Under the pieces are notes generated by a model. The model ran no database searches. It was not told the DNA's origin and was given only the letters and a program-made list of their open reading frames with translations. From the sequence record DRR378314_1411: a stretch of 57,248 nucleotides of DNA. One strand, 5' to 3'. Position numbers and translations under genes: made by a program. Shown in pieces: positions 2,911 through 37,398 of the stretch. Position 1 is the stretch's first letter; each line of letters starts with the position of its first letter.

Positions 2911-3035
2911 GAAGCTAGTTTAGTTGAGGGGAAAATAATTCTTTTTGGTGAAAAAACATTGTTTTTTACCTTGGAAAAGTAAGAAAATTCGGTAAAATAC
3001 TGGTTTTCAGAAATTGTAGGATTCGGTAACCATAA

Positions 3036-3778: not shown

Positions 3779-4942
3779 ATGACTGGAAATTTTAAGATGA
3801 TGGCCAAAACCCTTTACGGTTTCGAGCCTATTTTGGCAAAGGAGCTTCGTAATTTGGGTGCTGGCCTTGTGGAGGAAGGTGTTCGTAATGTTACTTTTGA
3901 AGGGGATACCGGTTTTATGTACAAGGCAAACCTTTGCTTGCGAACCGCACTAAAGGTGTTCAAGCCCATAAAAACCTTTCGGGTTTTTAACGAAAAGGAC
4001 CTTTATAAACATATTTACGATTTGGATTGGCCGGATATTTTTGGAGTGGAAAAAACTTTTGCCATTGACAGTATTGCCAATACGGAGGTTTTTGACAACT
4101 CCATGTTCGTGTCCTTAAAGGCCAAGGACGCCATAGTTGACAAGTTTAGGGAAGTTGTTCGAGAGCGTCCCAATGTGAAGACGCAAGACCCTGATATTCG
4201 AATCAACATACATATTTTTAAAAATACGTGCACAGTTTCTTTGGACAGTTCTGGGAATTCCTTGCACCAAAGGGGATACCGCATCCTGACCAATATTGCC
4301 CCCATCAATGAAGTATTGGCCGCTGGCCTTTTGCTTAAGAGCGGTTGGGACGGCCAAACGGATTTTTTTGATCCTATGTGCGGAAGCGGAACTTTTTTGA
4401 TCGAGGCGGCGATGATTGCCTGTAATATTCCGGCAAACATCAACAGGGAATCCTATGCGTTTATGCATTGGAACGATTATGATGCCGAGCTTCACAATAA
4501 AATTGTGGATGCCAGTTTAAAGAAAGTACGAGAGTTTCATCATAAAATCATTGGTTACGACAAAGCTCCTTCGGCCGTGCGAAAAGCGCAAGAAAATGTA
4601 GATCACGCCAACCTATCGGATTACATTACTGTGGAACGCAAAGATTTTTTCAGGGCCGACAAGCCAGTAGAGGGTAAATTGCACATGGTTTTCAATCCAC
4701 CTTATGGAGAAAGATTGCCCATTGATATGGAAATTTTCTATGGTAAAATAGGGGACACCTTTAAGAAAATATATCCGGGAACGGATGCCTGGTTGATCAC
4801 TTCAAATTTGGAGGCACTAAAGCACATCGGCTTAAAGACATCTAAAAGGATAAAGACCTTTAATGGTAAATTAGAAGCAAGATTGGTAAAGTACGATATC
4901 TACGAGGGTAGCAAAAAAGCCAAGTTTCAGGATAACGATTAG
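3779..4942 (+). CDS. THUMP-domain class I SAM-dependent RNA methyltransferase (RlmL-like)
   Basis: SLDSSGNSLHQRGYR, APINEVLAAGLL, DPMCGSGT and NPPYGER motifs. Confidence 0.92.
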   Translation: MTGNFKMMAKTLYGFEPILAKELRNLGAGLVEEGVRNVTFEGDTGFMYKANLCLRTALKVFKPIKTFRVFNEKDLYKHIYDLDWPDIFGVEKTFAIDSIANTEVFDNSMFVSLKAKDAIVDKFREVVRERPNVKTQDPDIRINIHIFKNTCTVSLDSSGNSLHQRGYRILTNIAPINEVLAAGLLLKSGWDGQTDFFDPMCGSGTFLIEAAMIACNIPANINRESYAFMHWNDYDAELHNKIVDASLKKVREFHHKIIGYDKAPSAVRKAQENVDHANLSDYITVERKDFFRADKPVEGKLHMVFNPPYGERLPIDMEIFYGKIGDTFKKIYPGTDAWLITSNLEALKHIGLKTSKRIKTFNGKLEARLVKYDIYEGSKKAKFQDND

Positions 4943-4980: not shown

Positions 4981-5013
4981 TTTGACAAATACTAAAAGAA
5001 TTGTTTAGATTTG
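4981..5013 (+). promoter_or_regulatory. Consensus Bacteroidota housekeeping promoter (-33/-7) with no credible CDS downstream
   Basis: TTTG (4981-4984), 21-nt spacer, TAGATTTG (5006-5013). Confidence 0.6.
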
Positions 5014-5018
5014 GTGAT

Positions 5019-5089
5019 GTGTTTAAAACACGACTAACTAACTCAACCAAGTTTTATAGAAGGAGTCCAATGTGGCTCCTTTTATTTTT
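5019..5089 (+). ncRNA. Candidate ~70-nt small RNA with an AC-rich single-stranded core
   Basis: Own promoter; 5' hairpin GTGTT-TAA-AACAC; core GACTAACTAACTCAACCAAG; terminator AAGGAGTC-N6-GGCTCCTT followed by TTATTTTT. Confidence 0.55.
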
Positions 5090-5423
5090 CCGACCAGATG
5101 GCAAGCTCATTTCCAGAAGAATCCGTAAAATGGAATCTTTTTCCTCCCGGAAACTCAAAAATCTCTTTGGTCACAGAACCCCCTGCCGCAATTACTTTAT
5201 CTTTTATTGCAACCAGGTCTTTATGGTATAGTACAATCAGAACCCCATTGGTGATAGGTTCAGTGGTCAGCTCAAAACCACCATTGATCCCACTTTCTGA
5301 AAATGCGGTATAGGTTGGTCCATAATCGGTAAAAGTCCAACCAAAGGTTTGAGAATAAAATGCTTTGGTCATTTCCAGATCTGTTGATTTGAACTCGATA
5401 TAGTCGATACGGGTAGTTTCCAT
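5082..5423 (-). CDS. VOC / glyoxalase family protein
   Basis: IDYIEF, FYSQTFGWTFTDYGP and IFEFPGGKRFHFTDSSGNELAIWSE. Confidence 0.9.
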   Translation of the reverse strand: METTRIDYIEFKSTDLEMTKAFYSQTFGWTFTDYGPTYTAFSESGINGGFELTTEPITNGVLIVLYHKDLVAIKDKVIAAGGSVTKEIFEFPGGKRFHFTDSSGNELAIWSEK

Positions 5424-5424
5424 A

Positions 5425-6180
5425 TTATTGTTGATTATCTTCTTTTGGTTTTTTGGACTTTTTGTAAAGGGGAATAAAGTAGGTGATGGAATAATTGTAG
5501 TTCACTCCAAATTTACTGCCCTCGGTAACTTTATTGAATCCGGGAATCCATAGATTGGGGAATGCTTCATCCTCTGTATTGGTGACCAAGAAGCCCAAAC
5601 GCGTACTCATGCCTGCAAAAATATTGGCGAACAGCTCTACTTTAACTCCCACCACAAATTCCAGCCACGAAGCGGATAACCCATTAAATTCACGATCTGG
5701 ATTTTCACCGGACAAAAAATCTTGGTTGAAGAAACGGTCCGTTTCATACAAGTTGTATTCATTTAAAGTCTGACTAAAACTCGCCACGGCATAACGCCCA
5801 CCAATGGTAATGGCATTGTTCATGCCATACCAATTTTCATAAGTGTTCAAATCTACTCCCGCCTTAATATAGCTTCCGGAAGTTTCGTAGTCGTACAAGA
5901 GGGTATTGTTCAGGTTTTCCCTCTGTCTTTTGGTTTCGTTCCCTATTTCGGCAGCCAAATACAGTTTACGGGTAAGTCGGTAGTCGCCCACCAATTCCAA
6001 ACCTGTATAATCTTCGTCCACAAAAGAGAGCACTAATTTACTGATGTCGGCACCCACACGCAGGCCATATTGATCCTTATATTCTACAGTATCTTTTTGG
6101 GAAAGATCCAGAGGTTCGCTTTGTGCTTCCGCCAAAATAGGTAGTAGACCAATTAAAATGCTAATGAAATATTTTGACAT
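5425..6180 (-). CDS. DUF6048-like outer-membrane beta-barrel protein
   Basis: Signal peptide; alternating beta-strand pattern; YGLRVGADIS and NLWIPGFNK motifs; coupled to the upstream lipoprotein gene. Confidence 0.65.
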   Translation of the reverse strand: MSKYFISILIGLLPILAEAQSEPLDLSQKDTVEYKDQYGLRVGADISKLVLSFVDEDYTGLELVGDYRLTRKLYLAAEIGNETKRQRENLNNTLLYDYETSGSYIKAGVDLNTYENWYGMNNAITIGGRYAVASFSQTLNEYNLYETDRFFNQDFLSGENPDREFNGLSASWLEFVVGVKVELFANIFAGMSTRLGFLVTNTEDEAFPNLWIPGFNKVTEGSKFGVNYNYSITYFIPLYKKSKKPKEDNQQ

Positions 6181-6679
6181 GGATGTTATTGGTGTTTTCT
6201 ACATTCGGTTGAACAACCTTAATATCTTGAATCCAGTTTTCGGCACTTTCTGGAACCGTAACAGCAATGTTGTTGTAGTTGACTACAAAACCGCAGGCTC
6301 TTGAAATAAAGGCTTCGCCAAGTTCGTAAGAAATGGTCAAGGTGTCAATATTTCCAGTTTCCTGATCGGTTTCATCATCATCGGCCGAATTTGAAATAAT
6401 TTGGTACATGGTAGTGGTTGCATTACTTCTTAATGGCACTTGTAAGGAATCGGGCGAGTTTGATCTATCACTAAAAGAAGCGTTGGATAAGACACTATCG
6501 ATGTCGATGCTTCTAATTCGTATTGAAGGAACTCTTTTTGCCGCAGTGGTATCATCTATGTTAAAAAAACCGATGACCATAAGCGGTGTATCGCCCTCAA
6601 CGCATATATCGTCCTTTTCACAGGAAGAAACAAAGTAGAGCGTTGCTGCAATAAGTAGGATGGGGATTATTTTCTTCAT
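6161..6679 (-). CDS. DUF6452-like lipoprotein
   Basis: Lipobox VSSC followed by EKDDIC; FISRACGF motif; C-terminal HVKIFH. Confidence 0.7.
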   Translation of the reverse strand: MKKIIPILLIAATLYFVSSCEKDDICVEGDTPLMVIGFFNIDDTTAAKRVPSIRIRSIDIDSVLSNASFSDRSNSPDSLQVPLRSNATTTMYQIISNSADDDETDQETGNIDTLTISYELGEAFISRACGFVVNYNNIAVTVPESAENWIQDIKVVQPNVENTNNIHVKIFH

Positions 6680-6709
6680 TCCGGTTACCTATGGATTTTA
6701 ATTCAAAAA

Positions 6710-8122
6710 CTACACCCGTTTTTCCAAAAGTACAACATTTTCAACGTGGTGCGTTTGCGGGAACATATCAACCGGTTGAACTTTGGTTACTTTGTATTTT
6801 TCTTTCATTAGCGCCAAATCCCTGGCCTGGGTCGCGCTATTGCAGCTAACGTAAACAATTTTTGGCGGAGCTACCTGTAAAAGTTGTTCAACCACCTGTT
6901 TGTGCATACCATCGCGGGGGGGATCTGTAATAATAACATCGGGTTGCCCATGTTCTTCTATAAACGCATTGTTGAACACATTTTTCATATCGCCAACAAA
7001 GAATTCCGTATTTGAAATGTTGTTGTGCAGCGCATTGGACTTGGCATCTTCAATAGCTTCGGGAACGGATTCCACCCCAACCACTTTTCTGGCGTTTTTG
7101 GAGATAAACTGGGCAATGGTTCCAGTGCCCGTATACAGATCGTATACCAATTCCTCTCCGGTAAGTCCAGCAAAATCACGTGCTACTTTATAAAGTTCGT
7201 TGGCTTGGGCCGAGTTGGTCTGATAAAACGATTTTGCATTGATTTTGAATTGAAGCCCTTCCATTTCCTCAAAAATATGATCACGACCTGCATAGCAAAT
7301 CACCTCTTGATCATAAATGGTGTCGTTTCCTTTGGAATTGATGACGTAAAGCAATGCAGTTATCTCCGGGAATGTTTCCTTTAAATGATTCAGGAGCAAT
7401 TCGCGATACTCCTTATTTTCTTCGAAGAACTGGATAAGAACCATAATTTCCCCTGTGGATGATGTCCGAATCATAAGGGTTCGCAAAAGGCCTTCTTGTC
7501 TTCTTGGGTTAAAAAAGGTTAATCCAATTTTGTTGGCAAAGTTTTTCGTTTCCAATCGTATGGCATTGGAAGGGTCTTTTTGCAAATGGCACTTTTTAAT
7601 GTCCAATATTTTGTCCCACATGCCAGGAATATGGAATCCCAAAGCATTCCTATCTTCAATTTCAATGTCGGAGTTGATTTCTTCCTGAGTCAACCATCGA
7701 CTATCGGAAAAAGAGAACTCCATCTTGTTTCGGTAAAAATATTGTTCTTTGGAACCCAAAATAGGTGTTGTCTCGGGTAGCTCTAGGTTTCCTATGCGTT
7801 TTAGGTTGTTCTCGACTTCTTTTTGCTTAAAATGGAGCTGGTGTTCGTAGCCCATATGTTGCCATTTGCATCCTCCACATACACCGAAGTGCTCACAAAC
7901 AGGTTCTGTTCTTTTGTCGGAAAGTGTATGGAAGTTGGTGGCAACGCCCTCAAAATAGGCTTTTCGTTTTTTGGTGGTCATCACATCCACTACATCACCG
8001 GGCACGGCATTGGTCAAGAAAATTACCCGTCCGTCCGGGGCTTTTCCTACGGATTTTCCTTTTGCACCGGCGTCGACTACTTCTACCTTTTCAAACGTTT
8101 TTCTCCTTCTATTTTTACGCAT
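6710..8122 (-). CDS. rlmD: 23S rRNA (uracil-1939-C5)-methyltransferase
   Basis: TRAM N-terminus; CEHFGVCGGC 4Fe-4S motif; SFYQTN, DLYTGTGTI, DPPRDG, YVSCN and DMFPQTHHVE. Confidence 0.95.
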   Translation of the reverse strand: MRKNRRRKTFEKVEVVDAGAKGKSVGKAPDGRVIFLTNAVPGDVVDVMTTKKRKAYFEGVATNFHTLSDKRTEPVCEHFGVCGGCKWQHMGYEHQLHFKQKEVENNLKRIGNLELPETTPILGSKEQYFYRNKMEFSFSDSRWLTQEEINSDIEIEDRNALGFHIPGMWDKILDIKKCHLQKDPSNAIRLETKNFANKIGLTFFNPRRQEGLLRTLMIRTSSTGEIMVLIQFFEENKEYRELLLNHLKETFPEITALLYVINSKGNDTIYDQEVICYAGRDHIFEEMEGLQFKINAKSFYQTNSAQANELYKVARDFAGLTGEELVYDLYTGTGTIAQFISKNARKVVGVESVPEAIEDAKSNALHNNISNTEFFVGDMKNVFNNAFIEEHGQPDVIITDPPRDGMHKQVVEQLLQVAPPKIVYVSCNSATQARDLALMKEKYKVTKVQPVDMFPQTHHVENVVLLEKRV

Positions 8123-8254
8123 GCCGCAAAAGTAAGTTCTTTTTGGTATTTCACAGAATGCAGCCTCTTAAATTGCATCTAAACTTTCGGTTGTTCAAGT
8201 GTGAATCCACGCTCAGAAAATTACATTTTCATTAATTAATTTGTAATTTGCGGG

Positions 8255-8341
8255 CACTCCAAGGGATGATTTCTCTCCCACGCTGCTTTTTCGCCCCGAT
8301 CACTGTTGGGACTTCGAAAGAATAAAGGTACAGTAGGAATG
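8255..8341. ncRNA. Candidate structured RNA element in the rlmD/rocD intergenic region (rocD leader)
   Basis: GC-richer island with nested stems GGGA/TCCC, TTTTTCG/CGAAAGA and CCCGAT/GTTGGG; outer CACTCC/GGAATG. Confidence 0.35.
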
Positions 8342-8372
8342 GTTATTTTATCAATTTTAATCATTTAATGAA

Positions 8373-9653
8373 ATGGCTGTTTTAGAGCATTTAACATCGC
8401 AGCAAGCGATAGAACTGGAAAACAAATACGGAGCGCACAATTATCACCCGTTGCCTGTTGTTTTGAGCAAGGGTGAAGGTGTTTATGTCTGGGATGCGGA
8501 AGGAAAGAAATACTATGATTTTCTCTCCGCTTATTCTGCAGTGAACCAAGGACATTGTCACCCAAAAATTGTGGGTGCCATGGTAGAGCAGGCAAAAAGA
8601 TTGACCTTGACTTCCCGTGCTTTTTATAATGATATGTTGGGGAAGTACGAGAAATTTGCGACCGAAACCTTTGGTTTTGATAAGTTGTTGCCCATGAACA
8701 CTGGGGCGGAGGCCGTTGAGACCGCTTTGAAGATTTGTAGAAGATGGGCATACCAAAAGAAAGGTATACCCGAGAACCAAGCCAAGGTGATTGTTTGTGA
8801 AAACAACTTTCACGGTAGAACGACCACAATAATTTCTTTTTCCAATGATGAAGTGGCACGGGAAAATTATGGTCCTTACACCGAAGGATTTGTAAAAATC
8901 GAGTACGATAATTTGATAGCTTTGGAAAATGCCCTTAAAAGCAATCCGCACGTTGCAGGCTTCTTGGTGGAACCAATACAGGGCGAAGCAGGGGTTTATG
9001 TGCCATCCGAAGGATATTTAAAACAAGCCAAGGCCTTATGCGAAAAATATAATGTGCTTTTTATCGCGGATGAAGTACAGACCGGCATTGCCAGAACGGG
9101 CAGGTTATTGGCAACTTGTGGCAATTGTTCATGTCCAGATAAAAATTGTAGTGGTACACCAGAAGTAAAACCCGATATCCTGATTTTGGGCAAAGCCCTT
9201 TCTGGAGGGGTTTATCCGGTTTCGGGTGTTCTGGCCAACGATGATATTATGGAAGTGATCACCCCAGGAAGTCATGGAAGTACTTTTGGAGGCAATCCTG
9301 TCGCTGCTGCCGTGAGTACGGCTGCTTTGGAGGTGGTGAAAGAAGAGAACTTGGCGCAGAATGCCGAAGAATTGGGGGAATTGTTCCGTGAAGAACTAAA
9401 TAAATTTATCCCAACTTGTGATTTGGTGGTGAAAGTTAGAGGCAAGGGATTGCTCAATGCTATCGTAATCAACGATACCGAAGATAGTTCCACAGCTTGG
9501 GATATTTGTATGGCCTTAAAGGAAAATGGCTTGTTGGCAAAACCAACGCATGGCAATATTATCCGTTTTGCGCCACCTTTGGTGATGAACCGCGAGCAAT
9601 TGATGGATTGTGTATCCATTATTATAAAAACGCTAGAGGGCTTTACCAAATAA
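8373..9653 (+). CDS. rocD: Ornithine--oxo-acid transaminase
   Basis: YGAHNYHPLPVV, LSAYSAVNQGHCHP, FHGRT, EPIQGEAG, ADEVQTG and LGKALSGG (PLP lysine). Confidence 0.97.
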   Translation: MAVLEHLTSQQAIELENKYGAHNYHPLPVVLSKGEGVYVWDAEGKKYYDFLSAYSAVNQGHCHPKIVGAMVEQAKRLTLTSRAFYNDMLGKYEKFATETFGFDKLLPMNTGAEAVETALKICRRWAYQKKGIPENQAKVIVCENNFHGRTTTIISFSNDEVARENYGPYTEGFVKIEYDNLIALENALKSNPHVAGFLVEPIQGEAGVYVPSEGYLKQAKALCEKYNVLFIADEVQTGIARTGRLLATCGNCSCPDKNCSGTPEVKPDILILGKALSGGVYPVSGVLANDDIMEVITPGSHGSTFGGNPVAAAVSTAALEVVKEENLAQNAEELGELFREELNKFIPTCDLVVKVRGKGLLNAIVINDTEDSSTAWDICMALKENGLLAKPTHGNIIRFAPPLVMNREQLMDCVSIIIKTLEGFTK

Positions 9654-9682
9654 GTAGGAAAGATTGATTTTTTATTAAAATA

Positions 9683-9710
9683 AAAATGCGGGTGAATTCA
9701 CCCGCATTTT
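9683..9710. terminator. Bidirectional intrinsic terminator
   Basis: Perfect 28-bp palindrome AAAATGCGGGTGAATTCACCCGCATTTT between convergent genes. Confidence 0.85.
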
Positions 9711-9738
9711 CTTTATGTATCGTTGGAAATAACATCAG

Positions 9739-10257
9739 TTATAAAAACCAATATCCTAATCCCACGGTTAAATAATTTCCTCTAAGTTTTACATCTTCAC
9801 TTCCTGTATATGAGTTGTTCAATTGGAAAGTGTAGCGTGCTTCAACAAAAAAATCTTCTGTAATATCATACCCTATTCCTCCGGCAATATCAAACTCAAA
9901 ACTGCTGATTTCATCTGGGATTTCATCTTCCAGGGAGAAAACCAATTGTGGACCAGCCTGAAGGTTGAATTTTTCTGAAATGGCAAATTTACCTAAAATG
10001 GGAAGGAATAATGCGCTGGCCTCATTTACATTGACATAGAGAAGTTCAGGTTGGATGTTGAAGTTTTCAGCAACCCCAAAATCCGCCGCTGCACCAAAAT
10101 AAAATCCCGATTCGGAATCCGAAATGCTGATTCCTTCCGCTTTTACGCTGCCACGGGCATTAAGATAACCTGCTGTTGCTCCAAACCTAACGTCTTGGGC
10201 TTGTGAGGAACAAACGAACCCCACTACTGCAAGGCCTACAAAAAAAAGTTTTTTCAT
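9739..10257 (-). CDS. Small outer-membrane beta-barrel (porin family / PorT-like) protein
   Basis: Signal peptide; FGATAG, IQPELLY, LQAGPQL and VEARY strands; terminal aromatic strand VGLGYWFL. Confidence 0.85.
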   Translation of the reverse strand: MKKLFFVGLAVVGFVCSSQAQDVRFGATAGYLNARGSVKAEGISISDSESGFYFGAAADFGVAENFNIQPELLYVNVNEASALFLPILGKFAISEKFNLQAGPQLVFSLEDEIPDEISSFEFDIAGGIGYDITEDFFVEARYTFQLNNSYTGSEDVKLRGNYLTVGLGYWFL

Positions 10258-10357
10258 GTTTAATTAAATTTATGTTACGGAGGTAAATATAGCGATATAA
10301 TTAATTGTAAGATTATATCTACAAAAAAGTAATGGGTTGGATTTTGAGAAAAATACT

Positions 10358-11410
10358 TTAACACACAGCGGCTTCCACTAAACGAAGCTGTTTTTTATAA
10401 GCATTGAAGCTTGCTTCAATACCAATGGGAAGGGTTGAGTTTTGGGGAATGTGTCCGAAACTCATCCCATAAACTGCGGGAATTCCCAATGGAGAAATTC
10501 TATCCATAATAACTTCTCTGAGCGTAAAATTCTCGGTGGTTCGTTTGCGATCGCAACCTTTGCATACCCCGAAAATAATTCCCTTGGCCTTGGTAAAACT
10601 TTCAACATTGGCCAGTTGGGTAAGCATACGGTCTATGCGATAGGGAGCTTCCTCAACATCTTCCAACAGTACAAGTTTGTCGGTAAAGTCGATTTCGTAA
10701 GGAGTTCCTATCATAGCGGCCACCAAAGTTAAACTGCCTCCAACGAGTTCGCCCTGTCCAACTCCGGGATTAATGGTGTACCGATAGTATTCGCTGTTTC
10801 GGTATTGTTTTGGATCTTTCAGAATGGCATTTTTGATGGGCAAGGTTTCCTGTGGATCCATCAAAACTTTTTTAAAATAGGCCTGACTGTATTCGTTATC
10901 CAGTGTTTTGCCCACAGGCCCGTGGAAACAAACCAAACCGGTTTTTTGGTAGATTGTGTTGATCAAAGCGGTAATATCGCTAAAACCAATCAATGCCTTT
11001 GGGTTGTTTTCAATGGTATCATAGTCCAATTTATCCAAAATACGGGTGCATCCGTAACCGCCTCGGGCACAAAGTATGGCATCAATATCTGGATTGGTGA
11101 ACATTTCGTTTAAATCCTTTGCCCGCTCTTCATCTGTATTGCTGAAATACCCATGATTACCCTTAATACGATCCGTATAGTAGGTTTTAAAGCCCATTTT
11201 TTGCAATGTATCGACTGCAAGATAAAGCGCTTCGGGTTTTACCGCAAAGCCTGGTGCAACCAAGCCAATGGTGTCCCCTAAATTTAATTTTTTGGGTTTT
11301 ATTTTGGATTTGGGTTTGGAAAAAGATTCATTGCTCCACGCTTTTTGGTGCAAAAGGGTAAGGGCACCTAATGCAGTGGCAGATTTTAAAAAGCTTCTTC
11401 TTTTGGACAT
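10358..11410 (-). CDS. S66 family LD-carboxypeptidase with Tat signal
   Basis: CARGGYG, GFSDITAL (Ser), EDVEE (Glu), SFGH (His); start moved to ATG 11410 giving MSKRRSFLK; TATCTTTG -7 box at 11439-11432. Confidence 0.9.
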   Translation of the reverse strand: MSKRRSFLKSATALGALTLLHQKAWSNESFSKPKSKIKPKKLNLGDTIGLVAPGFAVKPEALYLAVDTLQKMGFKTYYTDRIKGNHGYFSNTDEERAKDLNEMFTNPDIDAILCARGGYGCTRILDKLDYDTIENNPKALIGFSDITALINTIYQKTGLVCFHGPVGKTLDNEYSQAYFKKVLMDPQETLPIKNAILKDPKQYRNSEYYRYTINPGVGQGELVGGSLTLVAAMIGTPYEIDFTDKLVLLEDVEEAPYRIDRMLTQLANVESFTKAKGIIFGVCKGCDRKRTTENFTLREVIMDRISPLGIPAVYGMSFGHIPQNSTLPIGIEASFNAYKKQLRLVEAAVC

Positions 11411-11471
11411 TTGAAAAGGGATTATGCAACGCAAAGATAAACATCCATCAAACCTAAAAGAAAAAGATTAA

Positions 11472-12812
11472 TCAATCACTGTTTCTTTCATCCCTTCGCA
11501 ATTGTCTCTGAATTTTTCGAATGGCCGATTCAATGGATTTTTCAGGCTCTATAATGTTGTATTCACCCCAAAAGTTAGGGTCGGAGAATCCTGAAGCTTC
11601 ATCACTGAGAATAATGGACTCCCTGATTCTTTGACGATATTTGGGTCTTTCGGCCTTAGTGACTTTTTCCCAGTCCGTAATGGCCATTTCAGCGGTCATA
11701 CTGTATTGGGAATTGAACCATTTATCGGCCCAGTCCACTTTAAACTCCATAAAGACACTACTGTAACCGTAGAACCATTTCCCGTCTTTTTCCCGATAAT
11801 CTACCCTATATGCGACTTCGGTTGGCCAAACATCCACTTTGGCAGGCTTTTTTCGAACAAAAAGTTGTGCTGCCAGGTTTCTATCAGTAATGTTCAGGGA
11901 AAAAATGGCTCCTGTCAAAATTTTGTTTTCAACGTCGATATATAGTTCACCTTGGTACAAAGGTTCCAAAATTCCTTCGTATTGATCGAATTTGATTACA
12001 TAGATCAATCTATCGTTTGTTCTGGTGGAGCGGTCAAAAGTGAATTTATAATTGGTCAAATCCTCTTCTGCGAAGATGTATTGTGGATATTTCATCATAT
12101 CGACATACAGCGTGTTGTAAGGTCCTCCTTGTAGTTTGAGTGCAACCGTGTCCAGTTTGCTGTAATCCGTACTCTTTCTTGCTTTATATAGTTCAACGGC
12201 ATCATCTCTTCCAATGCTATAGGGTGTTTTGTACACGTTGACCACGGCCTCGGCCAAAGAGACGTTCTTTCTTCTTCTTTTAATGGTTTCTCTGTAAAAT
12301 GCCGTCATTAAGGTGGGATCCTCAAAGTAATTCTCCCCTCTGTTTTTCAAGGTTTCTTTTACCAGGGCCAACGCGTCTTTTGGTGCATTGATGTTTACCT
12401 CCGACAATTGCGTGGCCGATACTTTCAATGAAATCTCGTTACCTTCCCGCCCAAGGCTGGAAATGGGGATTATTTTGGTTTTATATCCCAAAAAAGAAAC
12501 TACCAGATTTTTATTGATATGCTCTTTGGGCACTTTTAGGAGAAAATTACCTTCCGTATTGGTTATGGTGCTAATATTGGTGCCTTCCACCGTGAGGGTG
12601 GCAAAAACCAAGGACTTATTGCTCGACTCCTCCTTGACCTCTCCACTATATTCATTATAATCCACTCCAGTTTCCTCTTGTTGAAACGACAAAGCTTTGT
12701 TAGGACCAAACATGATCAATCCGACCGCCAAGAGCAAAAGCGCTTGGGATTTTACTTTTAAAATAAATGATGGGGTTCTCAATAACATATGCGCAATTTT
12801 TCTTTTTTCCAT
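11472..12812 (-). CDS. Carboxypeptidase-like regulatory domain-containing protein
   Basis: N-terminal SLVFATL..TITNTEGNFLL..VSFLGY..LSEV pattern; AFYRE motif; start codon uncertain. Confidence 0.8.
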   Translation of the reverse strand: MEKRKIAHMLLRTPSFILKVKSQALLLLAVGLIMFGPNKALSFQQEETGVDYNEYSGEVKEESSNKSLVFATLTVEGTNISTITNTEGNFLLKVPKEHINKNLVVSFLGYKTKIIPISSLGREGNEISLKVSATQLSEVNINAPKDALALVKETLKNRGENYFEDPTLMTAFYRETIKRRRKNVSLAEAVVNVYKTPYSIGRDDAVELYKARKSTDYSKLDTVALKLQGGPYNTLYVDMMKYPQYIFAEEDLTNYKFTFDRSTRTNDRLIYVIKFDQYEGILEPLYQGELYIDVENKILTGAIFSLNITDRNLAAQLFVRKKPAKVDVWPTEVAYRVDYREKDGKWFYGYSSVFMEFKVDWADKWFNSQYSMTAEMAITDWEKVTKAERPKYRQRIRESIILSDEASGFSDPNFWGEYNIIEPEKSIESAIRKIQRQLRRDERNSD

Positions 12813-12907
12813 TTTATTAAATATACAAAAAAATACACATAAGTTTTTCCCTAACTTTAGTTAAAAAGCCCAATAATTCACTATGAATCAGAAAGAAGGG
12901 GTTTGTT

Positions 12908-15355
12908 TTAGTCCACCATAAAGAGCGCATTGGCAAAGAACAACTTACCGTTTTCCCAAAACCCTCTGAACAGGGGATTGTCCACCATATAGATTACCTG
13001 TCCACGACCGTAGCTTTCCACTCCGAAGACCAAGGTCTCCGAAATTCTTTTTTGTGCTTCGGTGCCTGCAAAACCAGAAAATGGCTTGGTGTTTTGTTCC
13101 AGGTACACTGCGTTGCCGTTGTCGAGGTATGCATAAGCACTGCTTCCCAGTTTTAAAGAGAAATAATCGGAACCATAGCCATACGCCAATGGATTGGAGT
13201 TGTCTACTTTGGTTTTAAAGATAGCTCCGGTTATTGCTCCTTTGATACGTTCTCGCTCCCAATCTTTATAGGGTTGGGGTGTATTGTCGCTGGTGTCTTT
13301 TTCCATTTTCTTTTTTTCGATTCCGAATCCTTTTTCGCCGTCAAGTGCATCAATGGAGCCGCCCATGGCAATTATTTTTCCACCTTGCCTAACCCAATCT
13401 TTAAGTTTGGATAGCTGGTCTTCGTTAAAATGATTCCCGTATCGTCCATCTGGTAGAACCAAAATGTTGTACTCGTTCAGGTCCACACGGTTTGCATATT
13501 CGTCATCAATCACGGTGAGCGGATAATGCAATTGCTGCTCAAAAAAGTGCCAGATTTCCCCAAATCTTAAGGTTGAAGTAGGTCCGCCGGAAAGCACGGC
13601 AACTTTGGGTTTGGTGACCATTTGAATGGATGAGGATCCAAAGTCTTTTCCGGTATCTACAAAACCGGTGCTTGTGGGTATAATCTCCTTTTCAAATTTA
13701 GCAGTAATGGTTTGTAGGGTCTGGGTAAAATCGTCTTTATTCTCATTATCACCTTTGGTGATGATCAAAGTACCACGCTCAAAGGATTTGCCTTCAATAC
13801 TGAAAGGGTGGTCTGCTTTACGAACTCGTATGCCTTCATTTAAAAGTGCGGCCAAAAAGCGGGCGTCATCCATACTGTTCCAATCGGTCAGATACGCATA
13901 GCTTCCATTATTTATATTGTAAGAAGTTGTGGTTTCCTGCACATTTTGGGTAGAAACCGAAGATGTGGAAGCCACAGCATCCAACCCGTAGGCATAGGGA
14001 AGCGACCATGCGGTGATATCGTAGGTCAAGGAATCCGAAAGTTTGGCATTGGGCTCGAACAATACCTTTACCAAAGTTCCCTTGGGTTGGTCCGTGGAAA
14101 CCACCATACCATTTTTATTAATGGACAGGTTTCCATTTTCACCAGTTTTATAACTGTGCCCCCTGTAAGAACCACTGGAAAGATTGCCATATTCAATATT
14201 GTGTTTGTCCAAAAGGGATTTAAGGGCGTCCAATTTGTCCCTGTCACCTTTCAGTACATAGCTTTGGTACTTGAATTCTTTATTTTGATGGAACTTTCTG
14301 AATTCCTCGTTTAGTTTCTCTGCGTTTTTGGAAGAAACCTCCACGGTGGAAAGCCCTGTGGTAAAATGATGGGCAATTCTATCTTTTAAGGTAAGGGTAT
14401 CTCCGATTGCAGTTATTACACCAAGACCTGCTCTTCCACTACCGCCCTGCTCGTAGGTCATTCCTATAGAGCCGTTGTAGATGGGGTAGGTATCACCATA
14501 ACTTGGGTACAATAGGTCAAAAACCTCTTTGGTGAAATAGAACCAGCCGTTGGCATCAAAATATTTGGCGTGATTTCTACCAAGGGTAACCTGAAAATCG
14601 CGTTGGAAATCGGTAATCACCTCGTGATAGGGTTCTGCGGCAGGCGCAAAATAGTAGGGGTTGTTTACACCTTGTTCATGAAAATCCACATGGATGTGGG
14701 GCAACCATTGGTTGAACATTTTTAGCCGTTGCTGGCTTTCTACTTGTGTAAGCCATGCCCAATCACGATTAAGGTCGAACATATAGTGGTTGCTACGTCC
14801 GCTCCACCAACCTTCATGGTGTTCCTTGCTATTGGGGTCAACTTGGTAAGGTGTGTTTTTATATTGATTGTACCAGTTACTGTATCTGTCACGCCCATCA
14901 GGATTGATACATGGATCCATAATCACCACAGTATTTTCCAAATAAGAACTTTTTTTGGTCAAAAGTTCGTAAATGGTCTTCATGGAAGCTTCGGTACTTA
15001 CGCTTTCGTTTCCGTGAACATTATAGCTCAACCAAACAATGGCTTTGGAACCACTTCCAGTTCCTTCGGTATCTTTTAAATGCTCTTGTCTGATGGTTTC
15101 CAGATTGGCCAGGTTTTCTGCTGAGGAGACATAGGCCAAAATCAAAGGCCTGCGTTCGTTGGTTTTGCCATAAACGGTAAGTTGTACTCTGTCTGGAGCA
15201 GATTCTGCCAAATATTCGTAATAATCCACCACTTCGTGATGGCGGGTAAACTGTGTTCCGAGATCGTACCCCAAAAATTCTGAAGGGGATTTCAATTGTT
15301 GGGCCGATACGGAAATTGATACTAAAAGAATGAGGGAAAATAAAAATCTGGTCAT
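12908..15355 (-). CDS. M14 zinc carboxypeptidase family protein, secreted
   Basis: VHGNE, NPDGRDR, DLNRDW and DFHEQG motifs; start moved to ATG 15355 (MTRFLFSLILL signal); TAAATTTG -7 box at 15384-15377. Confidence 0.9.
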   Translation of the reverse strand: MTRFLFSLILLVSISVSAQQLKSPSEFLGYDLGTQFTRHHEVVDYYEYLAESAPDRVQLTVYGKTNERRPLILAYVSSAENLANLETIRQEHLKDTEGTGSGSKAIVWLSYNVHGNESVSTEASMKTIYELLTKKSSYLENTVVIMDPCINPDGRDRYSNWYNQYKNTPYQVDPNSKEHHEGWWSGRSNHYMFDLNRDWAWLTQVESQQRLKMFNQWLPHIHVDFHEQGVNNPYYFAPAAEPYHEVITDFQRDFQVTLGRNHAKYFDANGWFYFTKEVFDLLYPSYGDTYPIYNGSIGMTYEQGGSGRAGLGVITAIGDTLTLKDRIAHHFTTGLSTVEVSSKNAEKLNEEFRKFHQNKEFKYQSYVLKGDRDKLDALKSLLDKHNIEYGNLSSGSYRGHSYKTGENGNLSINKNGMVVSTDQPKGTLVKVLFEPNAKLSDSLTYDITAWSLPYAYGLDAVASTSSVSTQNVQETTTSYNINNGSYAYLTDWNSMDDARFLAALLNEGIRVRKADHPFSIEGKSFERGTLIITKGDNENKDDFTQTLQTITAKFEKEIIPTSTGFVDTGKDFGSSSIQMVTKPKVAVLSGGPTSTLRFGEIWHFFEQQLHYPLTVIDDEYANRVDLNEYNILVLPDGRYGNHFNEDQLSKLKDWVRQGGKIIAMGGSIDALDGEKGFGIEKKKMEKDTSDNTPQPYKDWERERIKGAITGAIFKTKVDNSNPLAYGYGSDYFSLKLGSSAYAYLDNGNAVYLEQNTKPFSGFAGTEAQKRISETLVFGVESYGRGQVIYMVDNPLFRGFWENGKLFFANALFMVD

Positions 15356-15512
15356 GCTGGAATTAATTGGTTTTACCAAATTTACTAATAAATTGAAGCT
15401 GAATCCTAATTTTGTAGAGTTACCCCCTAAAAGGATATAAAATTCAATTAACGTATTTTTGGGATGAGAAAAAAAGAAGAGACTTATCTTTGAAAACCTC
15501 ATTGCAGTTTTA

Positions 15513-17117
15513 ATGGAAGTAGAATGTACACCCTTTAAGGAGACCGGTTATTTTTCCCAATTAATTTGTGACTATCTAGATCAGAAAAAAGATTTATCTC
15601 CCTTTTTTAGTAGATATCCTTTGCCCGAAAACTTCGGTGATCAAATCCAAGAAAAGGCCGCAAACTATCCAAAAGCGAATCGAAAAGTCTTGGTCGATGC
15701 TTTAAAGGAGCAATATCAAGGTGTTGAGGTTTCCAAAGGAACCCAGAAAAATATTGATGCGTTGTCCAAGGAGAACACATTTACGGTGGTCACCGGACAT
15801 CAGCTGAATTTGTTTACAGGACCGTTATACTTCCTTTATAAAATTGTTTCAACCATCAATTTGGCCAAACAACTCAATAAGGAACGTCCAAAAAATCGCT
15901 TTGTGCCGGTATATTGGATGGCCACGGAGGACCATGATTTTGATGAGATCAATTATTTTAATCTGCATGGAAAAAAGGTGCTTTGGAACAAAAAAGCATC
16001 TGGAGCGGTAGGTAGGTTATCAACCCAAGGCTTGGAAGAGGTGTTCGAGATATTTTCTGCGGAACTTGGCAATCTTGGGTTGACGGATAACTTGAAAGAG
16101 TTGTTCAAAAAAGCATATTTGGAGCATTCCACCCTTACTGAAGCCACTCGCTACTTGGCCAATGCATTGTTTGCGGACCAAGGATTGGTGATTGTGGACG
16201 GTGATGATAAAAGTTTGAAGGAATTACTTGTCCGTTATGCAAGAATGGATATGCTGGATCATACTCCCTATGAGAAAATATCCGAGACCATTGATGCACT
16301 GGGCGAGACTTCCCCCGACTATAACATTCAAGTGAACCCACGGCAAATCAATTATTTCTACTTAAAAGATGGCCTTCGGGAGCGAATCATCTTGAAAAAG
16401 GGAAAATACCATGTGATCAACACCCATATCGATTTTACCGAGGAAGAACTTTTAAAGGAACTTGACGAGCACCCCGAACGGTTTTCACCCAATGTGGTGG
16501 CACGTCCGTTGTACCAAGAAGTGATCTTACCGAACCTCTGTTACATTGGCGGGGGAGGGGAATTGGCCTATTGGTTGGAACTAAAATCTTATTTTGATGA
16601 GGTTGGGGTAACTTTTCCCATGCTTATGCTTCGTAATTCGGCTTTGCTGATAACGGAAAAACAATCCGAAAAGGTAGCAAAGATGGGCTTGAAAACATCC
16701 CATTTGTTTATGAAACAACATTCGCTCATCAACAAAAAGATACGGGACATTTCCAATATTGATATTGATTTTTCGCCCCAGAAAAAATTGTTGGAAGAGC
16801 AGTTCCAACATATGTACGAACTGGCAGAACAAACGGACAAAAGCTTTTTGGGAGCCGTAAAGGCACAAGAGGTGAAGCAGAAAAAAGGCTTGGACAATTT
16901 GGAAAAACGCTTGTTGCGGGCACAGAAAAGAAAACTCAAAGATCATGTAGTGCGTTTAACTGATCTGCAAAATGAATTGTTTCCCAACCAATCACTTCAG
17001 GAAAGACAATTGAATTTTTCGGAAATATATCTGGAAATGGGGGAAGATTTAATTCCTCTACTGTTAGATACTTTAATTCCGTTTTCTCAAGACTTTATCA
17101 TCATAAAGCACAAATAA
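15513..17117 (+). CDS. bshC: Bacillithiol biosynthesis cysteine-adding enzyme
   Basis: VVTGHQLNLFTGPLY, WMATEDHDFDEIN, FSPNVVARPLYQE, YIGGGGELAYW and LQER; TATCTTTG box at 15485-15492. Confidence 0.95.
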   Translation: MEVECTPFKETGYFSQLICDYLDQKKDLSPFFSRYPLPENFGDQIQEKAANYPKANRKVLVDALKEQYQGVEVSKGTQKNIDALSKENTFTVVTGHQLNLFTGPLYFLYKIVSTINLAKQLNKERPKNRFVPVYWMATEDHDFDEINYFNLHGKKVLWNKKASGAVGRLSTQGLEEVFEIFSAELGNLGLTDNLKELFKKAYLEHSTLTEATRYLANALFADQGLVIVDGDDKSLKELLVRYARMDMLDHTPYEKISETIDALGETSPDYNIQVNPRQINYFYLKDGLRERIILKKGKYHVINTHIDFTEEELLKELDEHPERFSPNVVARPLYQEVILPNLCYIGGGGELAYWLELKSYFDEVGVTFPMLMLRNSALLITEKQSEKVAKMGLKTSHLFMKQHSLINKKIRDISNIDIDFSPQKKLLEEQFQHMYELAEQTDKSFLGAVKAQEVKQKKGLDNLEKRLLRAQKRKLKDHVVRLTDLQNELFPNQSLQERQLNFSEIYLEMGEDLIPLLLDTLIPFSQDFIIIKHK

Positions 17118-17232
17118 TTGGGAGTAATCTTTTAGTGATAATTTAATTTTTCAAATAAAAAATGAAAACCATGGTAGGGTATTTCTATCCATAGTTGTTT
17201 CATAATTGTAAATAGCTATGAAAATTTAAATT

Positions 17233-17309
17233 TTGAGTTGGTTAACTCATATGTTTAGGTTGGTTTTGATTTTATTTTAAAAGCCCCGGAGTGGTTCCCG
17301 GGGCTTTTT
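17233..17309 (+). ncRNA. Candidate GU-rich small RNA or 3'-UTR-derived RNA downstream of bshC (5' end unknown)
   Basis: Hairpin TGAGTT-GGTT-AACTCA; unpaired TGTTTAGGTTGGTTTTG; terminator with AGTGGTTC loop; about 160 nt between the bshC stop and the terminator. Confidence 0.4.
17279..17309. terminator. Intrinsic terminator (bidirectional, stronger U-tract on +)
   Basis: AAAAGCCCCGG-AGTGGTTC-CCGGGGCTTTT followed by TGTTTTTT. Confidence 0.88.
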
Positions 17310-17346
17310 GTTTTTTACAGTTTTATGTTTGTTTAGAGCTTGATTT

Positions 17347-19623
17347 TTATTGATTTTGTTTGGTTCTGGCTTTTGCATCTTCCATAAGTTTGTTTAGAGC
17401 ACCATTGGCATTACAGTCACCAATCTCTGGTCTTGAAACTTCAATCAGTTCATTTTTATCGAAAATATTAAAACTACCCACTTCTTTCTCCTCTCCGTTG
17501 ATGATGATAAAATGAGCGAATTCCTTGGTGTCGTGGTTGTACGTAAATCCGGCTCCACCAATGCCATTGGTCAGTTCCTGAACACACGCCTCCACGTTAT
17601 CTTTTAATCCTTCCAACTCTTCCACTGTTGGCAACTGGTCAACAATGTCCTGTGCTTCTATCCGAATGCCATCCGCCTCTTCAATATATTTAACATTGTC
17701 CGCAGCTTCCAAGAGTTGTGCTTTTTGACTGCTTGTTAGTACGGTCTCATTAATGGTTACACTTCTTGATGCAGTCATGGTCCAGAGATTGCCACAGCCA
17801 AAAGTGGGATGCCCATGGATTATGGTTACCGAAAATGTCCTGTTGATTCTATCTAGACTGGCCAAATCGCGCAAGGCGGCTTCCAATTCGGTTCTGGTAG
17901 TTGCATTGTCGTTAGATTCATTGACTGCATTGCGTAACCTTGTCAACGCATTTCTGTGTCCCCGGACAATGGCATCGATCTGTCCGGAAAGATTATCGCT
18001 GCAAAGTATTCTGTTATTATCGCTCAAATAGGAATTGATTGTATTCCTTCCTTTGGTTATTCCTGCATCAACAGCATCATCAATGGCGGCATCTGCTTGA
18101 TCAATGATTCCCGGTAAGGCAGCTCTCAAACCTCTTAAACTGAGTTCCAAATCATATTGCGTCTCTGCATCTTCAAGTTCCTGTATTGCATTTTGTGTAG
18201 TTTCAATGGCTGCATCGATTTGGGAAGTAACCGTCTCAGAGATGCCATCGGAAAAATTATCGGGCTTTGTAGCAATGCATTTGGTTTCATTTGTTGTGTA
18301 TACCGCCGATGCCCCCCAAACATCATCTCCCGAATACACTTCCCCTTGCATGGTAAAAGCCTCTGGGGTTGCCCTTACAGAACCCTCCATACCTTGGTTG
18401 CCGGCGGGCATTTGGATTTCAAAGGATCCAGATAATCCAATATCGAAGTTGCCCGTTTGTTCCACAAAACCATAGGCATTCATGTCTCCATCGGGCATTA
18501 GCGGAATGAAATCTGGCCACCAGGATAAATCGGGGTCAACCAAACCATTAATAAAGGCTTTGGCTGTTACACCATCGTTGGTGGAAGCTTCAGCGACCAC
18601 TGCTGCACTGCCCGAACCAATTGGGAAACCAAACGATATGAAAGAGGTTATTTCCATGGACAAGTCAAGTTTGCCATTGATACCTGCCCTATAGTTTACC
18701 CCAAAATCCGACTCCATTGGTTCGTTAAAATCAAGATCAGCACTGAAACCCCTGTTTTGGAAATACATACCGGAAGCCTCCAATAATTTAAAGAATGAAA
18801 CTGTTCCACCGGTAACCTGATTGGCTTGGAACGAAACGACATTCCCTTGCACCGGGTTGGTAGGTTCGTACATAAAGTTGGAACTAAAGGATCCTCCAAA
18901 ACTTACACTGGACAATTTATTATGGCTTGAACTGTTGTCTCCGTTGGAATTGTCACTGTTGTTATCGTTGCCACCCAAGGCATCACCTCCTAATGAAAAG
19001 AAGAACATGGGGTCTGTATAATCTGCAATGAATGTAATATGTCCTCCCACAGGCGCCTCTATGGAGAGCGGTTTATGAGCGTCGGGATCGTTATTGACTC
19101 CAAGTTTTAATTCCAATCCAGCTGAAACTGCAAAAACAAAATAAGAGCGTTCATCCACCAGTTTAATTTCAAAATCACGATTCTCATTCAGAAATTTACC
19201 TGTAAAGAATCCAATATCTGCTTGAATAGGTGTTTCAAATTCAAAGTAGTTGGTAGGTGCAGGTATTTCTGAGGTGCCGCTGATACTTTTTAGCGTGCCA
19301 TCATCATTAAATTGAACATCGAGGTCTGCTTTGGCAAAAACGATGGTTTCTTCCTCGGTGTTCAGGGTAAGGGAACCGTCAACAAGATAACCGTTTGCCG
19401 TTTCCGTTACAGTTCCCTCAGGGTTCAGGTCATCATCTGTTATTGCATCACCGGTGTCTATACTGGTACATTGATCGGGGCATTGATTGGGGTTGCCACA
19501 AGGATTTTCTTCGCAAGGGTCGTTAGCGATAGGTTCTATTCCACTTTCTTTTCCGCAGGAAACAGTCAATGCCACTAAGAACAATAGGCAAATTCTGTTC
19601 AATGGTTTTAGTTTTGTTTTCAT
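17347..19623 (-). CDS. Large hypothetical lipoprotein (758 aa)
   Basis: Start moved to ATG 19623 (MKTKLKPLNRICLLFLVALTVSC lipobox); Cys/Pro-rich tether, long Gly/aromatic beta region, helical coiled-coil C-terminal third; no family recognised. Confidence 0.8.
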   Translation of the reverse strand: MKTKLKPLNRICLLFLVALTVSCGKESGIEPIANDPCEENPCGNPNQCPDQCTSIDTGDAITDDDLNPEGTVTETANGYLVDGSLTLNTEEETIVFAKADLDVQFNDDGTLKSISGTSEIPAPTNYFEFETPIQADIGFFTGKFLNENRDFEIKLVDERSYFVFAVSAGLELKLGVNNDPDAHKPLSIEAPVGGHITFIADYTDPMFFFSLGGDALGGNDNNSDNSNGDNSSSHNKLSSVSFGGSFSSNFMYEPTNPVQGNVVSFQANQVTGGTVSFFKLLEASGMYFQNRGFSADLDFNEPMESDFGVNYRAGINGKLDLSMEITSFISFGFPIGSGSAAVVAEASTNDGVTAKAFINGLVDPDLSWWPDFIPLMPDGDMNAYGFVEQTGNFDIGLSGSFEIQMPAGNQGMEGSVRATPEAFTMQGEVYSGDDVWGASAVYTTNETKCIATKPDNFSDGISETVTSQIDAAIETTQNAIQELEDAETQYDLELSLRGLRAALPGIIDQADAAIDDAVDAGITKGRNTINSYLSDNNRILCSDNLSGQIDAIVRGHRNALTRLRNAVNESNDNATTRTELEAALRDLASLDRINRTFSVTIIHGHPTFGCGNLWTMTASRSVTINETVLTSSQKAQLLEAADNVKYIEEADGIRIEAQDIVDQLPTVEELEGLKDNVEACVQELTNGIGGAGFTYNHDTKEFAHFIIINGEEKEVGSFNIFDKNELIEVSRPEIGDCNANGALNKLMEDAKARTKQNQ

Positions 19624-19735
19624 CTCTTTTTGTTTTGTGGTTGAATGTGATTGCTGTTTTGTGTGACTTACTCGGTAACGGTCTGCAGCCCTTAGCCGAG
19701 CAAGACCACAAAACGGTGTCAAAAGCTTGATGAAA

Positions 19736-19825: not shown

Positions 19826-19838
19826 GTGCAATAAGCCC

Positions 19839-37193: not shown

Positions 37194-37245
37194 ATTGATA
37201 CTTGCTTTCACTTTTATGGAGTCGAGAATTGTTTTGACCGAAATC

Positions 37246-37365: not shown

Positions 37366-37398
37366 ATATTTGCGTTTAAATCAAAAATACAAGAGGCA

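Follow-up and report, generated by a model that had tools for sequence, protein, structure and literature searches.

Complementary small-RNA classes in marine Flavobacteriaceae and a proposed RNA-against-RNA switch on secreted peptidases

The DNA analysed here is a stretch of 57,248 nt from sequence record DRR378314_1411, called the window throughout. It contains two candidate small-RNA (sRNA) genes, A and B, which an original prediction had joined as a regulator and its sponge: GU-rich sRNAs would repress AC-rich initiation regions and would be titrated by an AC-rich RNA. Two RNA classes with complementary seeds are indeed found, and the AC-rich motif does occur in mRNA leaders; however, the main partner of A is a third RNA, C, encoded outside the window, rather than B. 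The idea holds in its main lines; the partner it picked was the wrong one. The two classes, here called CA-type and GU-type, carry complementary recognition sequences and probably form an RNA-against-RNA switch on secreted peptidases. As far as the sequence can tell, the window holds one member of each mutually complementary class together with a predicted target leader.

In the explanation preferred here, A and B would be sRNA genes of a marine flavobacterium of the Flagellimonas (formerly Muricauda) type. The GU-type sRNAs, meaning the C family and perhaps also B by way of its 5' module, would bind the CA motif CUAACUCAA close to the start codon and prevent translation from starting. In A and its paralogue A2 this motif would lie open, and both would serve as target mimics, or sponges, which titrate the GU-type sRNAs and free the peptidase mRNAs. 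The set of mRNAs under the CA motif would consist of exported M20 peptidases and other exported hydrolases. B, a GU-rich sRNA as well, would be related to these; its copy of the seed, UUGAGUUGGUUA, is degenerate, and it has a second core, UGUUUAGGUUGGUUUU, which is family-wide. That GU-type sRNAs mask start regions and that A is a target mimic is the best explanation overall, with a probability of roughly 0.5. It draws on observed conservation, gene architecture, covariation, complementarity and motif placement.

Complementary seeds in two classes of RNA gene

The seed of A, ACUAACUAACUCAA, is exposed between a 5' hairpin and the terminator. The 14-mer ACTAACTAACTCAA is unchanged in 17 of 18 genus loci and is unpaired in the minimum free energy (MFE) fold of A. 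Genome-wide work used the nearest genome, G001 (reported as 100% complete), which is 100% identical to the window at the A and B loci; the family was sampled as 151 genera with one genome per genus. Exact matches to the 14-mer of the A seed are found in 51 of the 151 genera (89 matches, at most five per genome; a reversed-pattern control gave 8). Thirty-one occurrences were inspected. Six are CA-type sRNAs resembling A2, 22 have a GU-type arrangement, one lies in a 5' untranslated region (UTR), at -17 to -4 of a lipoprotein alpha-amylase gene, and two are unclear. The 22 immediately follow a GC-rich hairpin; on the other strand the order is UUGAGUUAGUUAGU, hairpin, and a T run of 5-7, and these GU-type loci have an nAnnTTTG box 25-45 nt upstream on the GU strand. 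The single-stranded seed of the GU type, UUGAGUUAGUUAGU, located just before the terminator, is the exact complement of the A seed. GU-rich and AC-rich classes with complementary seeds, as had been proposed, are present across many genera of Flavobacteriaceae, the 14-mer being found in both orientations.

The GU-type gene C is located at C1:218183-218383 of G001 (L135/L337) and is present in 40 of 40 genus genomes. In 30 aligned loci its 36-nt body, TTATCTGAGTTAGCATTTTTTTGAGTTAGTTAGTTT, is invariant and its terminator shows compensatory changes. The region upstream is strongly conserved; it includes the dyad TTAACCTT-N6-AAGGTTAA and a -7 box, GA[AT]TTTTG, on the GU strand. The body, the compensated terminator, the dyad and the -7 box together indicate that the GU strand is the transcribed one. 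The dyad, which is perfectly conserved and lies between the upstream region and the -7 box, is likely the operator of a dimeric transcription factor.

A and C are perfectly complementary over 15 nt. Cofold gain was computed on the predicted RNAs, with 300 dinucleotide shuffles as controls; for this pair it is -17.3 kcal/mol, and none of the 300 shuffles is as good. As would be expected of a sponge and its regulator, the seed complementarity of A and C is above chance and both RNAs are conserved throughout the genus. Exact AACTAACTCAA sites in G001 are all intergenic (10 of 10; the control gave 2 matches); about seven have the GU-type arrangement, one is A1 (the A gene itself) and two are in 5' UTRs. 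The CA 14-mer is present in 22 of the 24 genomes with B and in 29 of the 127 without it, an association which is overstated because related genomes are not independent.

Some GU-rich loci deserve separate mention. Two GU-type loci of G001 lie about 350 nt apart (C12:488596-488965; L182 and L185), a spacing which suggests a tandem pair of paralogues. There is a GU-rich sRNA-like subclass with GGUUAGUUAGUUGGUUAGGUUAG (L077 and L087, in G178), the genome of which has no exact CA 14-mer, and a multicopy GU-rich subclass with UUCAUAAUUUAAAGUUUGGUUGGUUAUUUAG (L085, L088 and L090; G087, G184 and G095), of which L085 has two copies 320 nt apart.

A (about 70 nt, predicted at ~5019-5089) looks like a conserved sRNA gene, judged by the following features:

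4981-5013, + strand: promoter of A (A1), with -33 TTTG at 4981-4984 and the -7 box TAGATTTG at 5006-5013, 21 nt between them
5019-5031, + strand: 5' hairpin GTGTT-TAA-AACAC of the MFE fold; predicted transcription start at ~5019-5021
5033-5052, + strand: CA-type seed, single-stranded; ACTAACTAACTCAA (5033-5046) is invariant and contains the 12-mer noted originally (5035-5046)
5056-5089, + strand: intrinsic terminator GGAGTC..GGCTCC; stem of 5056-5067 with 5074-5085, then a T run

The gene is flanked by a THUMP/RlmL-type methyltransferase gene (3779-4942, +) and, in convergent orientation, by a gene of the glyoxalase family (5082-5423, -). Its promoter boxes agree with the sigma-A consensus of Bacteroidota, TTTG / TAnnTTTG, as described in PMC7366714 and PMC9723704. 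A TTG and a TAG[AC]TTTG box are kept in 17 of 18 aligned genus loci, with a spacer of ~19-21 nt. Among 31 distinct A1/A2 sequences, all five pairs of the 5' hairpin have changed on both sides and 93% of cells are paired; double changes are found at 14 of the 14 modelled A1/A2 pairs. Terminator stems of distant genus members are very different from that of A in sequence, and their pairing is kept. The A gene model matches 38 of 40 genus genomes (E<=0.01), 20 of the matches being strong and syntenic. The weaker class, A2, is a paralogue at other loci: its promoter region, hairpin and terminator differ and its seed is the same. At the family level the gene model matched only 2 of 151 genera because promoter and hairpins differ; there the exact-seed search was the informative one. 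By conservation, promoters and covariation, both A and B look like conserved, independently transcribed sRNA genes, as the original prediction had supposed.

It could be argued that none of these loci are RNA genes, and that they are DNA-level repeats or terminator-associated motifs such as mobile-element ends or recombination sites. The 14-mer is multicopy, adjoins hairpins and has stop codons in two frames. However, the copies are syntenic and single per locus, each with its own conserved promoter box; G-U changes are strand-specific; hairpins covary while the seed is fixed; and no transposase-like context was seen in the loci inspected. This explanation is highly improbable.

The CA motif at start codons of exported proteins

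The CA motif CUAACUCAA recurs in leaders of exported M20 peptidases, 7-14 nt before the start codon. A shares this motif with the leaders, as a sponge should share it with the targets: CUAACUCAA is contained in the A seed and is accessible in the MFE fold. One such leader is in the window:

51591-51604, - strand: CA motif CUAACUCAA (51604-51596) followed by AAAAA, 14 nt upstream of the ATG at 51581 of gene 50154-51581

The 475-aa product of this gene (50154-51581, -) is an exported M20 peptidase, and the leader reads AAAGUCUAACUCAAAAAAACUUCAACCC-AUG. Within the leader, CUAACUCAAAAAAA is a 14-nt perfect complement to UUUUUUUGAGUUAG of C; CUAACUCAAAA can pair with B at 17231-17241 over 11 bp, including one G-U (by eye). 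Positions 51591-51604 are a predicted target site of GU-type sRNAs.

In G001, (A)ACUAACUCAA or CUAACUCAA is located 7-12 nt upstream of the ATG of signal-peptide proteins. The motif-bearing leaders belong to two M20 peptidases and to one protein which matches the M20 dimerisation domain only; the leader of a sortilin/BNR signal-peptide protein carries GACUAACUCAA. Both 5' UTR sites of AACTAACTCAA precede M20 peptidase genes. CTAACTCAA lies within 45 nt of the ATG in 3 of the 18 PF01546 genes of G001 and in one M20_dimer gene; one motif-bearing M20-type gene, the fourth M20-type case, is the gene in the window. Among 25 orthologous leaders of one M20 gene, CUAACUCAA is kept in 19 and the rest of the leader varies. 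An AC-rich motif before start codons was part of the original prediction, and it recurs upstream of exported-protein starts, one of them in the window. The two hexamers proposed for it fared differently at -40 to -1 of the 51 window starts. AACTAA is enriched 9.5-fold, on four sites only, and ranks first of 45 hexamers of the same composition (median 2.07-fold); AACCAA reaches 1.15-fold, which does not bear out the enrichment.

The roles of the two classes could be the reverse of those proposed here. The CA-type RNAs A1 and A2 would then regulate and the GU-type RNAs (the C family and B) would be sponges; alternatively, the two could neutralise one another as sRNA and anti-sRNA, with no mRNA regulon. 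Complementarity is symmetrical, GU-type genes outnumber CA-type genes in G001 (~7 vs 2), and the conserved dyad operator of C suggests that C is the regulated component. However, leaders in G001 carry the CA strand and never the GU strand. Both of the 5' UTR sites among the ten 11-mers read CA in the mRNA sense, and the CA motif is conserved in orthologous M20 leaders. Reversed polarity appears unlikely, and the reading in which GU-type sRNAs mask start regions is kept below.

To our knowledge, Bacteroidota have no Hfq, no ProQ and no Shine-Dalgarno pairing, and their post-transcriptional control is poorly mapped. The one worked-out network that we know of in this phylum is that of FopS and RbpB in gut Bacteroides, which has a protein antagonist. 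For the nearest genome the claimed lack of Hfq holds: no Hfq match was found in G001, while control genomes match. There was also no match to RRM_1 (PF00076) in G001 (the B. thetaiotaomicron control matches); the RRM-1 association of the FopS type is not seen there.

FopS/GibS sRNAs of Bacteroides thetaiotaomicron are multicopy RNAs of ~65-70 nt with TAnnTTTG promoters and a conserved single-stranded seed (PMC11697453, PMC7366714). They repress exported or outer-membrane nutrient-acquisition mRNAs by pairing next to the start codon, and the antagonist RbpB relieves this repression (PMC11697453). The original prediction cited Bacteroides as a precedent for RNA sponges. The precedent does not have that form; a protein (RbpB) counteracts the FopS sRNAs there, and the main text of PMC11697453 does not contain the word 'sponge' (0 occurrences). 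An sRNA sponge class is mentioned in the discussion of PMC7366714.

The system proposed here is like FopS/GibS in being from the same phylum, in having no Hfq and in its seed-sharing multicopy sRNAs, which would act beside the start codons of exported-protein mRNAs. GU-type action on leaders would resemble that of FopS on the susC leaders of Bacteroides. Seed-sharing paralogues (A1/A2, and ~7 GU-type loci in G001) and the promoter boxes (TAGATTTG in A, GA[AT]TTTTG in C) are also alike; this is a functional analogy only. Going by the published description of FopS, there are differences too. The Bacteroides antagonist is the protein RbpB, whereas the candidate antagonist here is an RNA which carries the motif of the targets themselves. 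In FopS the seed occupies the extreme 5' end; here the GU seed adjoins the terminator and the CA seed follows a 5' hairpin. FopS targets are SusC-like transporters, and the predicted targets here are M20 peptidases.

Within the family, Rfp sRNAs have been described in Flavobacterium psychrophilum, and Rfp18 controls metalloprotease mRNAs (PMC9723704). Like the RNAs described here, Rfp sRNAs are from Flavobacteriaceae, are conserved beyond the species, and have a predicted or demonstrated role in the control of secreted proteases; unlike A and C, they are not presented as a complementary sRNA pair in the description given there (PMC9723704). A search of the open literature found no description of the A, B or C RNAs; a homologue may be listed in the supplementary sRNA tables of PMC9723704. 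Rfam gave 0 matches at the gathering threshold in the whole window (the best sub-threshold score at B was 31.5 bits, against a gathering score of 53) and 0 matches for the C, A2 and L182 loci (L135, L182, L184).

As with the sponges of Proteobacteria, an RNA carrying the motif of the mRNA targets would pair with the seed of the regulator and titrate it. Sponges or target mimics of this kind reportedly include SroC, which acts against GcvB, and the chb decoy, which acts against ChiX. Unlike those RNAs, which are mostly processed from mRNAs or spacers and act together with Hfq, the mimic here would be a free-standing, promoter-driven family of paralogues, found in many genera and in an Hfq-less setting.

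Flavobacteriaceae are major degraders of marine organic matter. If the proposal is true, it provides a directly testable RNA-only switch for extracellular protein degradation in this family; it would also show that decoy sRNAs encoded by free-standing genes can be an ancient and conserved solution, and not just something left over now and then from mRNA processing. A broader and more tentative version is an all-RNA circuit in marine Flavobacteriaceae, run by two dedicated, promoter-driven families of sRNA genes whose seeds complement each other exactly: GU-type repressors would act at the starts of secreted peptidases and hydrolases, and CA-type decoys, with a copy of the target motif, would set the threshold, the decoy taking RbpB's role. 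Since neither Hfq nor RRM_1 was found in G001, an RNA decoy could stand in the place of RbpB, although this is speculation.

The match between A and B

The match noted originally joins TAACTAACTCAA (window 5035-5046) to TTGAGTTGGTTA (window 17233-17244). Its description was accurate. Read from both sequences, the two segments pair over 12 bp without gaps, with 11 Watson-Crick pairs and one G-U (U5039 with G17240). Terminator-like hairpins are located downstream of both sites, both on the + strand (A, ~5056-5089; B, 17279-17308 and then a T run), and B has the GGUU loop, in the hairpin TGAGTT-GGTT-AACTCA at 17234-17249 (hairpin 1). The observation is literally correct, yet by itself it is no more than chance; the caveat that a chance match was possible was well placed, as a 12-bp match alone is ordinary by window-wide pairing counts and by shuffles. 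The + strand of the window has 3637 ordered 12-mer pairings with at most one G-U, and 79 equivalent pairings, in 45 region pairs, are found among its 29 intergenic regions (3908 nt). A 12-mer match gains meaning only from comparative evidence. Folding the whole A and B regions as a duplex gave an energy of -44.4 vs a shuffled mean of -46.1 (standard deviation 5.3), and 60% of 500 shuffles were as good. This test is uninformative because it yields long, loop-rich 'duplexes' which shuffles match; it was dropped in favour of cofold gain on the predicted RNAs.

UUGAGUUGGUUA of B is the GU seed with one A-to-G change, and pairing with A is kept through the G-U. In other genera B has UUGAGUUAGUUA at this position, which complements A perfectly. 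With the CA seed, 9 bp or more can form in 21 of 29 B loci with the ATATG-type core and in 7 of 51 others; the remaining B loci carry an unrelated 5' module, GUGUCAUAA..AAGUUC. Pairing of A with B is possible but weaker than that of A with C; hairpin 1 must open for it, and it is probably secondary to the pairing of A with C.

A number of results weigh against the proposed switch. The duplex of A and B had been expected to beat shuffled controls; its cofold gain of -8.5 kcal/mol compares with a shuffled mean of -4.8 (standard deviation 2.5), and it is matched or bettered by 22 of 300 shuffles. Of 80 B loci, no more than 28 can still form 9 bp or more with the CA seed (none of the 80 can when the seed is reversed). 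The exact B 12-mer is present in 17 of 29 genus sequences and missing from the other 12, by our own count on the alignment. Compensatory changes, had the A-B duplex been selected, should preserve it, and those observed do not: in G003 the G-U position of A has changed from U to A (ACUAACAAACUCAA) while B is unchanged, which leaves the change uncompensated, and in the sister genus G132 hairpin 1 has gone from GAGUU/AACUC to GAAUU/AAUUC, which keeps the hairpin and gives an A-C mismatch against unchanged CA seeds. When up to two mismatches are allowed, the 14-mer is not enriched (26 matches vs 48 in the control). The covariation alignments of A and B were fitted to their models, which favours paired results. 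The association with M20 genes was noticed first and counted afterwards, and only 3 of 18 M20-domain genes carry the motif. Transcription starts and ends of all these RNAs are model predictions; expression, pairing in vivo, and the direction and sign of control are inferred from sequence.

The A-B match may instead be a by-product. UUGAGUUGGUUA would then be kept as a hairpin arm only, B would act solely via its GGUUGGUU core, and A would never meet B. Such a reading agrees with a cofold gain that is not above shuffles, with observed changes that preserve the hairpin and not the duplex, with the 52 of 80 B loci that have no complementarity, and with the sequestration of half of the 12-mer in a 6-bp stem. 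It does not account for the several genera which keep UGAGUU(A/G)GU in the 5' arm while the 3' arm varies (AACUC, AGUUC, AAUUC) and G-U keeps the pairing, nor for the excess of 9-bp helices over the reversed seed; the same arm of B can also pair over 11 bp with the M20 leader in the window. We give the by-product reading serious weight, at distinctly less than even odds.

A further objection is that a protein or the ribosome could recognise the CA motif, for example as a site which enhances or represses translation. A1 and A2 would be protein sponges in that case, and GU-type sRNAs would mask the motif. The distance of the motif from the ATG is fixed at 7-14 nt, its sequence is kept while its flanks vary, and the seed is invariant over 14 nt, which is longer than most seeds need. 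However, a protein or ribosome site leaves unexplained why 14 nt or more of exact reverse complement have been kept near the terminators of separate RNA genes in different genera. Each RNA carries a single motif, vs the many repeats typical of protein sponges, and no Hfq or RRM_1 was found in G001, where other RNA-binding proteins were not searched for. CsrB/RsmZ and CrcZ are protein-sponging sRNAs with many repeats of a short motif and a known bound protein. A is like them in that a small RNA displays the short motif of mRNA leaders; unlike them, it has one long motif and an exact antisense RNA partner. We consider a protein or ribosome site improbable, and retain A as a mimic of the targets of GU-type sRNAs.

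RNA B and other features of the window

B is located between bshC (15513-17117, +) and a convergent open reading frame (ORF) of 791 aa (17347-19722, -) which has no Pfam match. The features of B, and the third site which the original prediction had linked to it, are as follows:

17147-17220, + strand: upstream region of B, with a T run/A run, GTAGGGTATTT at 17174-17184, TTGTT, and the box TAAATAGC-TATGAA at 17209-17222
17221-17316, + strand: predicted sRNA B (~95 nt), from conservation, G-U changes and a covariance model
17233-17249, + strand: 5' module of B with the degenerate GU seed UUGAGUUGGUUA (17233-17244); TGAGTT 17234-17239, GGTT 17240-17243, AACTCA 17244-17249
17250-17275, + strand: single-stranded core of B, AUAUGUUUAGGUUGGUUUUGAUUUUA, invariant in 29 genus sequences
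17279-17316, + strand: terminator of B with loop AGUGGUUC and a T run; 9 of 12 pairs double-changed across genera
44987-44997, + strand: third site, in the ~32-nt 5' UTR of gene 45017-46162 (outer-membrane-type protein); its partner in the B core is 17251-17261

A 531-nt query over the B region found matches in 40 of 41 genus genomes, where the B stretch surpasses the adjacent coding DNA in conservation; in many genus genomes only the intergenic part, 17147-17317, was matched (78-94% identity). In alignments of 29-30 sequences hairpin 1 is nearly invariant, the linker ATATGTTTAGGTTGGTTTTGATTTTA is invariant and the terminator loop AGTGGTTC is kept. One-sided changes in the stems are all G-U on the + strand and would be A-C mismatches on the minus strand; B is therefore transcribed from the + strand. 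The covariance model of B has matches in 24 of 151 family genera. Across genera 15 of 18 pairs are double-changed, including all six helix pairs of hairpin 1, and 93.9% of cells are paired, a value reached by 0 of 500 shuffles. The core segment UGUUUAGGUUGGUUUU is kept across genera, family-wide. The core pattern occurs in at least 120 stretches of a species-level genome collection; the matches listed include Flagellimonas, Croceivirga, Eudoraea, Muriicola, Maribacter, Zobellia, Robiginitalea, Ulvibacterium and others, and the ATATG variant is, among the matches listed, the form in Flagellimonas, Muricauda and Allomuricauda.

Blocks of the region upstream of B are kept in the 29 genus sequences. 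RNAalifold gives no structure there, only the two 3' hairpins, and the region thus looks like promoter or regulatory DNA; 17147-17220 is probably the promoter of B plus regulatory sites. The box AAAT[TA]GCTATGAA recurs 25-35 nt upstream of the B core in other genera. An SM5 box, TAnnTTGY, has been described for Flavobacterium psychrophilum (PMC9723704), and the B box [TA]AAAT[AT]GC-TATGAA resembles it with one mismatch per variant; on this putative assignment the start of B is put near 17221. Readings of the promoter as sigma-54 or as canonical TAnnTTTG were ruled out by spacing (the alignment was judged by eye). A 5' stem at 17167-17196 showed apparent compensations by eye, which RNAalifold did not support. 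The blocks of 17147-17220 are genus-invariant and the canonical TAnnTTTG box is absent; transcription of B may depend on another type of promoter and on a regulator of its own.

No convincing target for the B core UGUUUAGGUUGGUUUU was found. Its best match in the window is at 44987-44997, with 2 mismatches to the 13-mer complement. The pairing claimed for this third site is correct, as CAACCTAAATA pairs with B 17251-17261 over 11 bp, one being G-U; in orthologues the site is only partly conserved (CAACCTAAA, CAACTTAAA, CAACCTAGA, TAACATAAA).

In some Flagellimonas species the CA motif (AACTAACTCAA, ACTAATTCAA) directly follows the B terminator (L057, L061, L062; L231, L246, L256, L267, L272). 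The same hairpin could therefore end a convergent GU-type transcript.

The 10-mer UCAACUAAAC is found 5-8 nt upstream of an ATG at 2918-2927 (-) and at 45003-45012 (+). The genes are those of a Big_7 Ig-domain protein (679-2910) and of the outer-membrane-type protein (45017-46162), both exported. The 10-mer could pair with GUUUAG(G)UUG of the B core, with one bulged G.

A 13-nt complement, TTTATGTTTGTTT / AAACAAACATAAA (17320-17332; 19723-19838), joins both flanks of the 791-aa ORF (17347-19722, -); this may be by chance. Another 13-nt complement, at 2919 and 32357, was rejected, as it belongs to an ordinary terminator stem. Lastly, a repeated element is present in 37172-37398 and in 55945-56120. 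It consists of GTATCGAGA, ~30 nt, TCTCGATAC/TCTTGATAC and CTCGAAC[TC]GAC, and has an internal inverted repeat.

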